Below, in pieces: positions 2,919-7,209 of a stretch of 64,000 nucleotides of DNA. The DNA is from a virus. How positions within the stretch are numbered: position 1 is the stretch's first letter; the number at the start of each line of letters is the position of its first letter. A program made the position numbers and the translations under genes. The stretch lies in the IMG/VR virus record IMGVR_UViG_3300045988_103857; one strand, written 5' to 3'. Below the pieces are notes generated by a model that made no database searches, was not told where the DNA came from, and worked only from the letters and a program-made list of their open reading frames with translations.

Positions 2919-3091
2919 TTCTTGCAAAATTTGTAGCAGCCATGTTGGATATTGCATTTTTCACATTGGTTTTAGCATTTCTTATATCACAGGACGAAAC
3001 CGAAAAGAAAGGCAATCCAATAGCGACGGCAGTATTTATATTGATGGAAATTTGTTTTGCAGTTAATGCAGTTGTGATTTTTAGATTATAA
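2915..3091 (+). CDS. small membrane protein (two hydrophobic helices), 58 aa
   Basis: Hand-translated: MILAKFVAAMLDIAFFTLVLAFLISQDETEKKGNPIATAVFILMEICFAVNAVVIFRL. ATGA overlap with the upstream ORF. Confidence 0.5.
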   Translation: MILAKFVAAMLDIAFFTLVLAFLISQDETEKKGNPIATAVFILMEICFAVNAVVIFRL

Positions 3092-3106
3092 AGGAGGACG
3101 CAAGTA

Positions 3107-3619
3107 ATGAAATTTTCAGAAGCATTCAAACTTATGAAACAGGGAGCCAAGGTAAAACTTCCATCATGGGGCGGATATTGGTATTGGAACGCAGAAAAAG
3201 AAACGATTATGATACAGTGCAGACCTCAGGATAGCGATACTCAGGGAGAACTACTTGACATCAGGGAAACTCAAAGAGTTGAATATACAACTATGAATAT
3301 GCAGTCTGATGAATGGATTATTGCGGACGAAACAAACTGCCAGGTACTCGGCGGTGAAGCAACATTCTCTTTCGGGGATGCAATTAAGTACATGAAGCGC
3401 GGACTTAAAGTGGCAAGAAAAGGTTGGAACGGAAAGAAACAGTACATTCAGCTCGCCACTGGAATTTCATATAAGAGTGCTGATAATGAGATTATAAATT
3501 GCGAACACGATGCAATCGGAAATAAAGCCATTGCTTTTGTCGGAACATCTGGCGTACAGATGGGATGGGTTGCATCTCAGGCAGATATGTTAGCAGAGGA
3601 TTGGATTTTTGCAGAATAA
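3107..3619 (+). CDS. tandem DUF2829-domain protein (Tad2-like candidate Thoeris-signal sponge)
   Basis: The C-terminal half has FGDAIKYMKRGLKVARKGWNGK...WVASQADMLAEDWIF, the DUF2829 signature. The N-terminal half repeats it in weaker form (FSEAFKLMKQGAKVKLPSW...SDEWIIADE). Strong AAGGAGG SD. Confidence 0.6.
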   Translation: MKFSEAFKLMKQGAKVKLPSWGGYWYWNAEKETIMIQCRPQDSDTQGELLDIRETQRVEYTTMNMQSDEWIIADETNCQVLGGEATFSFGDAIKYMKRGLKVARKGWNGKKQYIQLATGISYKSADNEIINCEHDAIGNKAIAFVGTSGVQMGWVASQADMLAEDWIFAE

Positions 3620-3631
3620 GAGGAGAACCCA

Positions 3632-3769
3632 ATGTGGTTAGCATTTACAATACAAATTCCCCTGTTCACCATACTGATTGAACGGGTGAAAATACAAGAA
3701 AAGCAGAAGCCTGTCGTTCTCAGGTTAGGGAAAGCCTTTGAATCTGACAGGTCGAGGCATCCAGAGTAG
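3632..3769 (+). CDS. small hydrophobic protein, 45 aa
   Basis: AGGAG SD 6 nt upstream. MWLAFTIQIPLFTILIERVK... Confidence 0.4.
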   Translation: MWLAFTIQIPLFTILIERVKIQEKQKPVVLRLGKAFESDRSRHPE

Positions 3770-3930
3770 CTTAGGTCTGCGTTGGTGAAACTCAATGGAG
3801 AATAACTTTTCCCACCCATTGCAAAGTAACTGGCGCGGACTTAACGGTACAAATATAGACATGATGCTTTCTAAAATTTTATAAAATATATCACTCTATC
3901 ACGAGTCCGGGTAAAATCCCGGACAAATAA

Positions 3931-3960
3931 TGGGCTATCGCCAAGTGGTAAGGCACAGGT
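3931..3960 (+). pseudogene. tRNA-Gln 5' half (acceptor stem, D arm and 5' anticodon stem), cut off at the anticodon loop
   Basis: TGGGCTATCGCCAAGTGGTAAGGCACAGGT closely resembles the bacterial tRNA-Gln 5' sequence (UGGGxUAUCGCCAAGxGGUAAGGCA). It is complementary to 4550-4584 in tRNA geometry. Confidence 0.7.
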
Positions 3961-3966
3961 GAATAC

Positions 3967-4452
3967 ATGACAAAAGAATTGATATATGATGGCAAAACAT
4001 ACATAAATTTTCTTATTGATGAAAATGGAAATGTACTAAACAGTAAAACAAAAAGAATTTTAAAAAAATCAATTTTCAAAGATGGATATTATCATATAAC
4101 ATTACCAATGGGAAAAAGAGGAAAAGTGAAATCGATTAGACTTCATAAAGCGGTTGCGGAAACATTTATTCCGAATCCACGAAAATATCCAATCGTTCAT
4201 CATAAAGACGAAAATAAATTAAATTGTTGTTGTGAAAATCTTGAATGGACAGACTCAAAAACAAACACTCAATATCATTTAAAAAAATTAAGTGAAACAA
4301 CGGATTATTATAATAATCGAAAACTCACAAAAGATGATGTCAAATACATAAGAAAAAACAAAGGAACAATAAGCTCAGGAGAATTAGCAAAAATATTTAA
4401 TGTTTCTAAAACTACAATTTTAAACGCTCAAAATTATAAGCTGTACAATTGA
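3967..4452 (+). CDS. HNH homing endonuclease (HNH_3/NUMOD-like)
   Basis: IRLHKAVAETFIPNPRKYPIVHHKDENKLNCCCENLEW matches the H-N-H core pattern of phage HNH_3 endonucleases. Its only SD-like sequence (AGGTG) is the preceding tRNA anticodon stem. Confidence 0.8.
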   Translation: MTKELIYDGKTYINFLIDENGNVLNSKTKRILKKSIFKDGYYHITLPMGKRGKVKSIRLHKAVAETFIPNPRKYPIVHHKDENKLNCCCENLEWTDSKTNTQYHLKKLSETTDYYNNRKLTKDDVKYIRKNKGTISSGELAKIFNVSKTTILNAQNYKLYN

Positions 4453-4465
4453 TATTAAGAATTAT

Positions 4466-4541
4466 TGGGGGTTGGCGAAGCGGATTAACGCATCGGTCTT
4501 TGACACCGACATTTTCATCAGTTCAAATCTGATACCCCCAG
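4466..4541 (+). tRNA. tRNA-Gln (anticodon TTG)
   Basis: Hand fold: acceptor TGGGGGT/ACCCCCA (U1:A72, G73). D arm GCGA..ACGC. Anticodon stem TCGGT/ACCGA with loop CTTTGAC. T arm ATCAG-TTCAAAT-CTGAT. The 7-nt variable region is unusual. Confidence 0.75.
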
Positions 4542-4549
4542 TAACATTC

Positions 4550-4584
4550 ACCTGTATTCGCGGGTTCGAATCCCGCTAGCCCAG
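4550..4584 (+). pseudogene. tRNA-Gln 3' half (3' anticodon stem, variable loop, T arm and acceptor)
   Basis: ACCTG-TATTC-GCGGG-TTCGAAT-CCCGC-TAGCCCA-G. ACCTG pairs with CAGGT (3956-3960). TAGCCCA pairs with TGGGCTA (3931-3937). Confidence 0.7.
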
Positions 4585-4786
4585 TCGGACTATATTGTTT
4601 AGCCATGATATAGTTCCCCTCCGAATTGGTTCCATCTATCCCAACGGGGATGATTAAAGGGGCTTCAAACGCCCCGGTTGGACTCTGCTTATGCAGAACA
4701 GCATTTAGACCCTTTGTTGCGACTGTGAGGGCATGAATCGCAACAGCAGAGGAAGTTACTCTTGAACTGCAATAACCCTCTGCTTA

Positions 4787-4859
4787 GGAAACTTAGTTCA
4801 GTTGGCAGAACGGTCGGCTCATAACCGACAAGTCACAGGTTCGAGTCCTGTAGTTTCCA
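4787..4859 (+). tRNA. tRNA-Met or Ile2 (anticodon CAT), elongator type
   Basis: Acceptor GGAAACT/AGTTTCC. D stem GTTC/GAAC. Anticodon stem GTCGG/CCGAC with loop CTCATAA. T arm ACAGG-TTCGAGT-CCTGT. Confidence 0.85.
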
Positions 4860-5189
4860 TTTCTTCCATATGCTGTCTATCCGTTTTATGGACAGAAAAA
4901 ACTGTTGAATGAGTGTATGTGGATTATTTTCATGAAAGGTGTGTAACGGCACAGCCTGTTCGATGAAGATAATTCCCCGTTCGGCACAGTCTCTGAGTTA
5001 AATTGTCGTCAATAGGTGCACGTTGAGGACAGGAAGTTTTCAAGAGGCATATAAAAGGTTTCGTCGCTATACACAAAGACATCAATATCCAAATCCGAAA
5101 CAACTCCGTGGGGCTGGCACGGTTGAAAACAGCCTAGTGGAAAGCATAACACGATAAACATATTGCTAACCCGGGGTTTCCGGGTTATG

Positions 5190-5258
5190 TGGAATGTACG
5201 CTAGTGGAAAACTGACAGAGTCGCGCTCTGGTCTCCGGTTCGATTCCGGGCGTTCCGC
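5190..5258 (+). pseudogene. degenerate tRNA-like element (intact acceptor and T arm, aberrant D and anticodon arms)
   Basis: Acceptor TGGAATG/CGTTCCG and T arm TCCGG-TTCGATT-CCGGG are good. The central 37 nt gives no 4-bp D stem. The only central hairpin (CAGAG-TCGCG-CTCTG) has a 5-nt loop. The 5' end resembles tRNA-Thr at 5550. Confidence 0.35.
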
Positions 5259-5549
5259 TTTAATCCGCTTAGAGTTAAGCTGTTTGTATACAGGCGGTCT
5301 ATGTCTCAGGTGGATTTACGCATGAGCGTAAACGTACAACTCACTAGGCGTTTGCGTAAAAAACTTTTTAGAGAGATGAGACCACGGGCCGTGAGAAGTG
5401 ATAGTCGGCAATTCTAAAAGAACCATCTAGTTCATGTGTTTTACGATGGAAAGGTTAATGCTTATCTGGATATTTTCATCCGGTCCGAAAGCATGTGATG
5501 TGGGAATCAACCCAGTTTCTTTTCAGAGAACTGGCCGTTATAGGCGGTA

Positions 5550-5621
5550 CGGAATGTAGCTCAGTGGTAGAGCAATGGCATTGTAAGCTATGTGCCGCAG
5601 GTTCGATTCCTGCCTTTCCGA
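5550..5621 (+). tRNA. tRNA-Thr (anticodon TGT)
   Basis: D arm GCTC-AGTGGTA-GAGC. Anticodon stem ATGGC/GCTAT with loop ATTGTAA. T arm GCAGG-TTCGATT-CCTGC. The acceptor CGGAATG/CTTTCCG has one mismatch. Confidence 0.75.
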
Positions 5622-5653
5622 TTCCAATGAACTGCAATCATTGGAATTTTTTT
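5622..5653 (+). terminator. rho-independent terminator closing the tRNA island
   Basis: 9-bp stem TTCCAATGA/TCATTGGAA, a 7-nt loop, then T7. Confidence 0.8.
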
Positions 5654-5743
5654 CTCTTACTTCGTTCGGTTCCAGTGTTTCTCGTTGGGAGATTTATGCC
5701 GTTCAAGTCGGCGCACTGGATTTTTTTAATTAAGGAGATGGCT

Positions 5744-5812
5744 ATGGACACAAAAGGATGTAAATGTTGTTGCACGTGTAAATGGTACGCAGTATGCGAA
5801 GGCGTCTGCTGA
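5744..5812 (+). CDS. Cys-rich micro-ORF, 22 aa (MDTKGCKCCCTCKWYAVCEGVC)
   Basis: AAGGAG SD 6 nt upstream of the ATG. 8 of 22 residues are Cys. Sub-threshold ORF read by hand. Confidence 0.3.
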   Translation: MDTKGCKCCCTCKWYAVCEGVC

Positions 5813-5885
5813 AATGGCGACAGTGAACATTGTGCAGACTTTAGATGCCTGGATGATAGTTGTGAATGTTGGGAGGAGAATAAGC

Positions 5886-6080
5886 ATGAGTGATTTGTCT
5901 GAACTTATTAATAATGGCGGTCTTATTATAAAAGAGCTGGAAAACGAACCGCCCATAGACCCTATAAAGGTAGCAAATTGGTTGATTGATCGCGGATTAA
6001 AAACTGGAATCCGATTATACGGAAAAAGTGAACTTAGACAAATTGCCAAACACCTTTTAATTTATTGTGGGGACGAATAA
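5886..6080 (+). CDS. hypothetical protein
   Basis: GGGAGGAG SD upstream of the ATG at 5886. 64 aa. Confidence 0.5.
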   Translation: MSDLSELINNGGLIIKELENEPPIDPIKVANWLIDRGLKTGIRLYGKSELRQIAKHLLIYCGDE

Positions 6081-6241
6081 TGCAAATAGCAGGAAAAGAA
6101 ATCAAAGACGAGTGTTCCAGATGCGGTAATATCCTTGAATGTGAGTTGTTCCGTCAGGGACATGGAATAAAACAGAAACGTGAGAATATAGCAAAGATGA
6201 TCGAATGCCAGATGAAGCACAGGGAGGAAAGAGAGAAATGA
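6080..6241 (+). CDS. small CxxC-containing protein, 53 aa
   Basis: ATG overlaps the upstream TAA. MQIAGKEIKDECSRCGNILECELF... The stop overlaps the next start (ATGA). Confidence 0.4.
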   Translation: MQIAGKEIKDECSRCGNILECELFRQGHGIKQKRENIAKMIECQMKHREEREK

Positions 6242-6954
6242 ACGAACTGAAAGTATTGAATGAGCAGGAAGTATTAGGAAAACAGTTTCGAGTATACGGA
6301 ACGGCAGAGGAACCGCTATTCTTAGCAAAAGATGTAGCGGAGTGGATTGAACACAGCAAGCCATCAGTAATGATTGAATCTGTAGATGAGGATGAGAAAG
6401 TCAAAGTAAATAATGTTTACTTTGAAAATAGAACCGGCGGGAATGGGACATGGTTTCTTACCGAAAATGGACTTTATGAAGTTCTGATGCAATCCAGAAA
6501 GCCGATTGCCAAACAGTTCAAAAAAGAAGTCAAAGAGATTCTGAAAACCATCCGTAAGCATGGCATATATGCCACGGACAATGTCATTGATAACATTCTG
6601 AATAATCCAGACTTCGGCATCGAACTTCTGACAAAATTGAAAGAAGAACGTGCCGCAAGAGTAGAAGCCGAGAGAAAGAATGCTATCCTGATGCACGTAA
6701 ATAAGACATATACCATTACTGAGATTGCAAAAGAACTGGGACTGAAATCAGCAATACAGCTAAATCGGATTCTGGCAGAGAAAAAGATACAGTATCAGGT
6801 GAACGGTACGTGGGTGATGTTTTCACAGTATAGTAATTGTGGGTATGAGGAAATCAAACAGGAAGTTCTGGATTCTGGAAAAGTGATCTACCATAGACGG
6901 ATTACACAGATGGGACGGGAATTTATTCTTGATCTATTTGAAAAGACAGCGTAA
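6238..6954 (+). CDS. phage antirepressor (BRO-N domain plus KilAC-like C-terminus)
   Basis: FRVYGTAEEPLFLAKDVAEWIEH...NGLYEVLMQSRKPIAKQFKKEV is a typical Bro-N pattern. The C-terminal half is ANT/KilAC-like. Confidence 0.75.
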   Translation: MNELKVLNEQEVLGKQFRVYGTAEEPLFLAKDVAEWIEHSKPSVMIESVDEDEKVKVNNVYFENRTGGNGTWFLTENGLYEVLMQSRKPIAKQFKKEVKEILKTIRKHGIYATDNVIDNILNNPDFGIELLTKLKEERAARVEAERKNAILMHVNKTYTITEIAKELGLKSAIQLNRILAEKKIQYQVNGTWVMFSQYSNCGYEEIKQEVLDSGKVIYHRRITQMGREFILDLFEKTA

Positions 6955-6972
6955 TTGAAAGGGGAGATTTCC

Positions 6973-7209
6973 ATGTTTAATAAACTTTTTAACTTATACA
7001 TAAGATACAAGACTAAAAATCTCAAAGCAGTTCCACTGTTCGTTATGACATTTAATTGGAAGAAAATTCAGAAAGACGGTAAAAAAGATATCTGTATGTT
7101 GACCATACATCCAGAAATCGCAAACGATCCGTTCTTAAAGAAAAAGCTGTCTGAATGTGCAGATTATATCCGAGATAACTACGATATGGAAATATTCACT
7201 AAGCTTTAA
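6973..7209 (+). CDS. hypothetical protein
   Basis: GGGGAG SD upstream of the ATG at 6973. Confidence 0.5.
   Translation: MFNKLFNLYIRYKTKNLKAVPLFVMTFNWKKIQKDGKKDICMLTIHPEIANDPFLKKKLSECADYIRDNYDMEIFTKL

Follow-up and report, generated by a model that had tools for sequence, protein, structure and literature searches.

What becomes of a phage tRNA gene that is interrupted at its anticodon by an endonuclease gene together with a second tRNA gene of the same specificity? The question is raised by a 64,000-nucleotide (nt) stretch of DNA from a gut phage, IMG/VR record IMGVR_UViG_3300045988_103857 (the whole of it is referred to here as the window), in which the two halves of a tRNA-Gln gene flank an HNH endonuclease gene and a complete tRNA-Gln(UUG) gene. 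The initial annotation proposed that this insertion destroys one tRNA-Gln gene and delivers a substitute, and the half-tRNA strings that it quoted sit exactly at 3931-3960 and 4550-4584. Our analysis suggests that the element is probably a free-standing homing-endonuclease cassette with a tRNA as its cargo. All features of the unit lie on the plus strand, and loci compared with the window are given L numbers.

To locate intact alleles we used the upstream gene, which encodes 170 amino acids (aa), as a synteny anchor in IMG/VR and compared the best 80 of its 553 relatives. About 50 of these 80 have an uninterrupted tRNA-Gln(UUG) gene of 72-73 nt at the same locus, followed by the same tRNA-Met gene, and 5 have the split arrangement. 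This indicates a presence/absence polymorphism at a single locus. At the empty sites L038, L039, L042, L043, L049 and L052 both parts of the tRNA are identical to the halves in the window, and the flanks are 92-98% identical. The 5' remnant of the resident gene (3931-3958, 28 nt) corresponds to nt 1-28 of the intact 72-nt gene and comprises the 5' strand of the acceptor stem, the D arm and the CAG of the anticodon stem. The 3' remnant (4552-4584, 33 nt) corresponds to nt 40-72 and comprises the CTG of the anticodon stem, the variable loop, the T arm, the 3' strand of the acceptor stem and the discriminator G. The intact gene of the sister phages scores 67.3 bits against the Rfam tRNA model. 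Chance resemblance of the halves to a tRNA is ruled out, since an uninterrupted gene with identical parts is found at the same locus; the intact ancestor that the initial annotation supposed does exist among relatives.

Alignment with the intact alleles also fixed the boundaries of the insertion. The intact allele reads ...GGCA CAGCA CTTTGAC TGCTG TATTC... and the window reads ...GGCA CAG/GTGAAT...ATTCAC/CTG TATTC.... Thus 11 nt (CACTTTGACTG, CA-CTTTGAC-TG, tRNA positions 30-40) have been swapped for 593 nt (3959-4551). An insert of 589 nt (3961-4549) had been described at first, and this has to be corrected. The anticodon loop is absent as stated, although the loss is of 11 nt and not of the 7-nt loop only. 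Similarly, of the five pairs read as the anticodon stem only three, CAG (3956-3958) with CTG (4552-4554), come from the original tRNA; the two GT/AC pairs are derived from the insert. A strict IMG/VR pattern for an uninterrupted allele with the stem CAGGT/ACCTG gave no match; the true stem is CAGCA/TGCTG.

The split gene was invisible to ARAGORN and Rfam scans of the region, which called three tRNAs: tRNA-Gln(UUG) at 4465/6-4541/2, tRNA-Met at 4787-4859 and tRNA-Thr at 5550-5621. When the halves 3931-3960 and 4550-4584 were joined in silico through a 7-nt Gln loop ARAGORN called a tRNA-Gln, so that the joined halves are tRNA-like as had been claimed; joined without a loop they gave no ARAGORN call. 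A megablast search of positions 3000-6000 against GenBank phages returned no close relative and a lone 94-nt match, which lay elsewhere in the query. An assembly artefact was considered and rejected, since 10 IMG/VR contigs, and also ENA/Logan assemblies made independently, have the same arrangement.

The cassette (3959-4551) has a GC content of about 25-30%, compared with about 43% in its flanks, a base composition that marks it as foreign. It contains the HNH gene and the complete tRNA-Gln(UUG) and is bounded by an 8-nt inverted repeat, read directly from the sequence. The left arm, AGGTGAAT, lies at 3957-3964 and shares its first two bases, AG, with the resident tRNA; the right arm, ATTCACCT, lies at 4546-4553 and shares its last two bases, CT, with it. 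The length of 8 nt is fixed by the lineage L123, with an HNH protein 80% identical to that of the window, in which the same AGGTGAAT...ATTCACCT stands on a different tRNA allele. All cassette variants keep the right arm. With this inverted repeat at the ends of the cassette, the split gene is closed by a helix of 9-10 base pairs (bp), CAGGTGAAT/ATTCACCTG, and in the minimum free energy fold of 3931-4584 positions 3957-3964 are paired with 4546-4553. The Shine-Dalgarno sequence AGGTGA lies inside the left arm, 4 nt before the ATG of the HNH gene. It does overlap a strand of the helix, as the initial annotation held, but it is mostly cassette inverted repeat rather than the tRNA anticodon stem itself.

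The HNH gene (3967-4452) encodes a 161-aa I-HmuI-like protein with a C-terminal helix-turn-helix and is the only substantial open reading frame (ORF) between the halves. The protein matched PDB 1U3E (I-HmuI) with E=1.5e-10 over residues 15-106 and phrog_59, 'HNH endonuclease', with 2.3e-32. In Pfam it matched HTH_11 and, at 22.1 bits and so below the cutoff of 24.8, HNH_3, a family whose cutoff many members of the clade pass. The Pfam, PHROG and PDB searches gave HNH and helix-turn-helix matches only, and no GIY-YIG domain. The His/Asn core HHKDENKLNCCCENLEW aligns with DHKDGNKDNNLSTNLRW of I-HmuI, and the residues H79, D81, N83, N86 and N91 do not vary among 14 members of the clade. Between cassette variants the ratio of nonsynonymous to synonymous substitution rates (dN/dS) is 0.06-0.13, with dS up to 1.2, and the gene is therefore kept by selection. 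One copy of the cassette, L008 (3001-3477), has a 9-nt in-frame deletion in the HNH motif that changes HHKDENKLNCCCENLEW to HHKDEN---SCCENLEW. The deletion takes out one of the clade-invariant Asn residues and leaves the rest of the cassette intact; the endonuclease of this copy may be inactivated.

The inner tRNA-Gln(UUG), the cargo or replacement copy, lies at 4466-4541 and was called by ARAGORN and by the Rfam tRNA model (54.1 bits), which bears out the reading of a second, different tRNA-Gln with the loop CTTTGAC. It has the anticodon stem TCGGT/ACCGA, a 7-nt variable loop and no encoded CCA. It is about 55% identical overall to the resident gene, with the same anticodon loop and with all five anticodon-stem pairs different. 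Among cassette variants the inner tRNA is 94-99% conserved, with a compensatory change in the acceptor stem in L010 and L112, and like the HNH gene it appears to be under selection. Its sequence was found in only ten contigs of IMG/VR, every one of which has the HNH gene too. ARAGORN found no other tRNA-Gln in the window. There is no special demand for a UUG anticodon, with 93 CAA and 220 CAG codons for Gln.

The distribution of the cassette indicates that it moves. It is 100% identical over 593 nt in L002, L003, L004 and L009, and the flanks around these identical copies show 94-97% identity for L002, L003 and L009, whereas those of L004 can hardly be aligned at all. Against L004 the block of perfect identity is 3954-4580, that is, the cassette plus 5 nt on one side and 29 nt on the other. 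The locus L010, with an HNH protein 81% identical, has flanks of the L078/L085 background (96-97% identity downstream), while its 3' tRNA remnant matches the L092 allele at 100% identity and L078 at only 80%. This mosaic pattern is consistent with co-conversion of the target gene together with the element, although as a single case it would also fit other recombination histories. The presumed target, the intact anticodon arm CAGCACTTTGACTGCTG, does not occur in the window at up to 3 mismatches. Sister phages with the intact gene indicate that the insertion is recent and spreading.

We sampled relatives of the HNH protein from IMG/VR, from a collection of 5.8 billion proteins, in which about 260 matched at E<=1e-10, and from metagenomes and genomes. 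The metagenome and genome scans gave mostly distant HNH_3 proteins, which we used as a negative control for tRNA adjacency. A tRNA-Gln(UUG) lies within about 80 nt of every full-length HNH relative of at least 51% identity, in 9 of 9 sampled lineages. Among relatives below 50% identity, any tRNA was present within the fetched flanks at about 5 of about 150 loci (about 3%). In the window lineage (L001-L010, L112 and L123; HNH identity 80-100%) the unit is nested in the resident tRNA-Gln gene. It is independently nested in L108 (60%), where the 5' half up to the loop is followed by the HNH gene, the tRNA-Gln and a 3' remnant that pairs through its acceptor strand with the 5' half, and it is also nested in L125 (58%), with a remnant on each side. 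The order in L203 (58%) is 5' half, HNH, tRNA-Gln. A 5' stub is present in L011/L012 (52%), and in L017 (51%) tRNA-Gln and HNH are followed by a 3' stub of T arm and acceptor. In L109-111 (64%) a 24-nt direct repeat leaves a 17-nt 5' stub, followed by HNH and then the full tRNA. The tRNA-Gln lies upstream of the HNH gene without a remnant in L105-107 (69%), and L124 (62%) has the clean order tRNA-Met, HNH, tRNA-Gln.

The 3' half is wholly absent in L112 (85% HNH identity) and in L203. In L112 the inner tRNA is fused directly to sequence that normally lies 3' of the outer gene. The outer halves are therefore dispensable, and the remnants are lost or diverge over time, as seen in L112, L203, L011, L017 and L109. 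Both resident halves in the window are non-functional remnants.

Several of these loci have features of their own. L203 is a 2.7-kilobase (kb) contig binned with a Eubacterium metagenome-assembled genome, a weak hint at a host. ROOL RNAs (Rfam RF03087; 284 and 318 bits) lie at 2166-2754 of L016 and 2335-2895 of L019, directly upstream of distant (about 40%) HNH relatives, with a tRNA-Gln in between in L016. About 900 nt downstream of the HNH-tRNA-Gln unit of L109, on a 49-kb contig of the Joint Genome Institute (JGI), is an IS605 OrfB/TnpB-like gene (3419-4465) with a weak match to Pfam OrfB_IS605 and a faint one to Cas12f1-like_TNB.

Together these results favor a homing cassette as the likely identity of the element. 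The proposal that it is a mobile cassette and not an intron was borne out by the intact alleles, the sharp edges of identity, the constant association of HNH and tRNA, the purifying selection, and the recurrence of a tRNA-Gln-linked unit in eight other lineages. During co-infection with a phage that lacks the cassette, the HNH enzyme would nick or cut that phage's intact tRNA-Gln gene within or close to the anticodon arm CAGCA-CTTTGAC-TGCTG. The break would then be repaired from the cassette-bearing genome, with the tRNA halves and further flanks as homology, and the repair would copy the cassette in, at times co-converting the tRNA remnants. A carrier would be immune since its target is physically split. 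The inner tRNA would presumably go unrecognized since, with the same loop, it differs in all five anticodon-stem pairs. The insertion would cost the phage little because the cassette supplies a substitute isoacceptor, and therefore neither a self-splicing intron nor an intein would be needed. The process so described is intronless homing of a free-standing homing endonuclease gene that in this case sits inside an RNA gene and makes up for the damage with its cargo tRNA. In the primary transcript the inverted repeat would extend the leftover anticodon-stem pairs to the 9-10-bp helix and bury the Shine-Dalgarno sequence, and in the predicted fold this could limit translation of the endonuclease to a co-transcriptional window. 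Such gating is suggested by the fold but is probably not essential, since the 3' half is missing in some lineages.

A number of points weigh against the homing model. Cleavage of the intact tRNA-Gln gene, and the position of the cut, are predictions for the HNH enzyme from its sequence. Enzymes of the I-HmuI type are nickases that are able to cut their own allele too. The homology between L004 and a donor is limited to the tRNA halves of 28 and 33 nt, which is very short for recombinational repair, and a simple homing model leaves the 8-nt inverted repeat unexplained. The variable loop of the inner tRNA, at 7 nt, is unusual, and this tRNA scores 54 bits, compared with 67 for the gene that it replaces, and conservation is what argues for its function. 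Compensatory differences in the outer halves are seen among intact alleles too and are uninformative on function after the split. No sigma-70-like site turned up around the unit in a promoter scan, and the cassette is assumed to be expressed from the transcript of the tRNA cluster.

The fold raises a different explanation, that the outer halves are alive. Together with the inverted repeat they would form a tRNA-shaped scaffold, kept as a functional RNA element rather than left as a pseudogene, that would be processed by RNase P and by RNase Z or the CCA-adding enzyme. The scaffold would define and stabilize the HNH mRNA, control its translation by burying the Shine-Dalgarno sequence, and release the inner tRNA. 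In both the minimum free energy and the centroid fold of 3931-4584 the outer acceptor, D and T stems are preserved, together with a closing helix of 10 bp (z = -3.7). The AGGTGAAT/ATTCACCT repeat is kept in two lineages in different tRNA alleles (the window and L123) with a 9-bp helix in both, and the outer halves of L001-L009 have no stem-breaking substitutions. However, these halves are identical or nearly identical to extant intact alleles, so that recency explains the absence of decay, and the helix of L010 has mismatches. Moreover, the lineages that have lost the 3' half (L112 and L203) or keep mere stubs (L011, L017 and L109) still have an intact HNH gene. We also considered compensatory changes in the outer halves between phages as a sign of structural selection on the split gene. 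This was rejected because the same variants occur among intact alleles, and it is further undercut by the identity of the cassette across those backgrounds. The probability is low, though not negligible, that the cassette has evolved to exploit the broken gene as an RNA chassis, with its inverted repeat restoring a helix like an anticodon stem and the 654-nt unit being a giant tRNA-shaped precursor trimmed by RNase P and RNase Z with translation gated by the helix that contains the Shine-Dalgarno sequence. If true, an mRNA would here have a natural 'tRNA scaffold', and the inner tRNA would have two roles, one as a signal for processing and one in compensating for the gene that was destroyed.

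We judged it rather less probable that the unit has spread passively, with HNH and tRNA inserted once by illegitimate recombination, the HNH protein having no role in movement, and the block then dispersed, whether through ordinary homologous recombination or because the inner tRNA was selected, for instance as a variant that escapes a host defense directed at tRNAs. Phage genomes are mosaic and nuclease genes often lie at recombination boundaries (PMC10448857), and tRNA genes near homing endonuclease genes can be selected as anti-defense cargo (PMC13096335). The cleavage role of the HNH protein is, as noted, predicted. Against this, general recombination would not easily produce identity that ends within 5 and 29 nt of the cassette when the rest of the genome is unalignable. 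Nine lineages have the tRNA-Gln, with stubs at varied breakpoints, compared with about 3% of distant relatives near any tRNA, and this points to HNH-dependent events that have recurred at tRNA-Gln genes. Purifying selection on the HNH gene is strong, and the inner and outer anticodon loops are identical, so that there is no obvious loop-based escape.

An intron is very improbable. In this explanation the 593-654-nt insert would be spliced from a pre-tRNA, either as a group I intron or by a bulge-helix-bulge endonuclease and a ligase, and the inner tRNA would be incidental. In tRNA genes, bacterial group I introns and archaeal introns are classically found in the anticodon arm, and the ends of the insert pair with each other beside the anticodon stem. 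An endonuclease with specificity for a tRNA gene's anticodon region and located in a self-splicing intron is known (Bonocora and Shub 2001, as cited in PMC3984707). From that citation, it resembles the cassette in having as its target the anticodon region of one tRNA gene and in belonging to an element in the anticodon arm; it differs in being cyanobacterial, in its nuclease family, and in that a self-splicing group I intron restores the tRNA. The phage introns known at the time of PMC3984707 were all in protein-coding genes and none in tRNA genes. At the locus studied here, 11 nt including the whole anticodon loop are missing relative to intact alleles and excision cannot regenerate a decoding tRNA; with the anticodon physically absent, splicing is ruled out as the rescue. 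Intron-aware ARAGORN (-i) called no intron-containing tRNA, and Rfam gave no Intron_gpI or group II match at E<=1 within 3000-7000. Non-coding sequence makes up only about 100 nt of the insert, and 76 of these belong to the inner tRNA. The closing helix is continuous over 9-10 bp without 3-nt bulges, hence there is no bulge-helix-bulge, and the 3' 'exon' is absent in L112 and L203. An integrase/att-site element was rejected, since the HNH gene is the only ORF in the insert, there is no integrase, and neither junction rebuilds a tRNA.

The region and its relatives contain further RNA features. The spacer of about 200 nt between the tRNA-Gln and tRNA-Met genes (4585-4786; core 4631-4682 and 4713-4746) is non-coding, conserved in diverged sisters and has a structured fold. 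Its first part is a 7-bp stem around two hairpins, the second with a T-loop-like TTCAAAY, and resembles a D-armless mini-tRNA with a 4-nt 'anticodon' loop; an independent hairpin of 11 bp makes up the second. Compensatory changes are seen at 10 of the 28 pairs that RNAalifold predicts for the consensus, and no Rfam family matched the spacer at E<=1. Judged from this predicted fold, the spacer may represent a tRNA-like or a processing element of phages that has yet to be described. Six nt upstream of the 5' end of the tRNA-Gln gene is a hairpin, GTCCGGG-TAAAAT-CCCGGAC (3905-3924), which is kept in sisters with other stems (such as GACCGGG/CCCGGTC, TCCCGGG/CCCGGGA and CCCCTGG/CCAGGGG). Since no T-run follows, it does not qualify as a canonical terminator and may instead serve as a signal for processing or for protein binding.

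Elsewhere in the family one conserved tRNA gene (L091 5707-5778 and L092 5767-5838, also in L074 and L089) differs between sisters in the anticodon loop alone. Its body is homologous to the tRNA-Thr(UGU) of the window and has no long variable arm. The loop is either ATTGAAT (UGA, called 'Ser') or ACTCAAT (UCA, called 'SeC'), and the latter, with C at position 33, would read UGA stop codons. The difference may reflect anticodon switching or an opal-suppressor tRNA in the phage family. An ARAGORN 'tmRNA' at 4212-4683 of L010 spans two tRNA genes (Met and Ser) and is almost certainly a false positive built from tRNA parts.

How does the cassette relate to known mobile elements? The HNH protein of the window resembles I-HmuI and I-HmuII of the Bacillus phages SPO1 and SP82 in the homology of its N-terminal and HNH domains, in its small size and in its C-terminal helix-turn-helix. 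I-HmuI is encoded in a self-splicing group I intron of a DNA polymerase gene, and splicing rescues the host gene; the cassette instead has a spare tRNA copy and no intron. Mitochondrial homing-endonuclease elements, such as that of Allomyces atp6, bring a substitute for part of a gene, and the resident part persists downstream as a pseudogene. Like the cassette, they neutralize the insertion with a substitute that they carry, but they are in-frame fusions in protein-coding genes of organelle genomes and replace only the 3' part.

The closest described system is SegB of phage T4, a free-standing GIY-YIG homing endonuclease in a tRNA gene cluster (PMC2330249, PMC13096335). SegB cuts inside tRNA genes of phages without SegB, moves with neighboring tRNA genes and removes tRNA-region markers of the recipient (PMC2330249). 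Both are phage homing endonuclease genes embedded in a tRNA cluster. However, SegB is a GIY-YIG and not an HNH enzyme, it lies between intact tRNA genes and not inside one, with no gene halves around it, and it reads the conserved T-psi-C motif of many tRNAs whereas the cassette is tied to one isoacceptor. Fractured genes (Dassa et al., PMC2677866) and the mobE/nrd genes-in-pieces of T-even phages (PMC2988022) also have a homing endonuclease gene between the pieces of one gene, but there the pieces keep their function through subunit assembly or split-intein trans-splicing (PMC2677866, PMC2988022). A tRNA without its anticodon is beyond such piecewise rescue, and the cassette instead brings a whole replacement gene. 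In mycobacteriophage arrays HNH genes adjoin tRNA genes and have been implicated in the diversity of the tRNA repertoire (Pope et al. 2014, via PMC5966550 and PMC6409571); as presented in those citing papers this amounts to adjacency and implied dissemination, with no tRNA gene split around a unit of HNH and isoacceptor. Our full-text literature search found no description of a cassette of homing endonuclease gene and isoacceptor nested in its own target tRNA gene.

Homing endonuclease genes are thought to persist in essential or useful genes only through self-splicing introns or inteins, or harmlessly between genes. The cassette would add a third route for an RNA gene, in which the element enters its target, destroys it and carries a spare copy presumed to be cleavage-resistant. 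An entire clade of I-HmuI-like enzymes is tied to one isoacceptor, tRNA-Gln(UUG), and provides a candidate pair of endonuclease and target. Its stages, with both halves, one stub or clean adjacency, would form a natural time series of invasion and decay of the remnants and would account for tRNA gene fragments in phage tRNA clusters. The split-tRNA arrangement is probably under-reported, since tRNA finders silently miss the split gene. Homing of this kind would provide a mechanism for the horizontal replacement of phage tRNAs, and bears on the role of phage tRNAs as counter-defense cargo.

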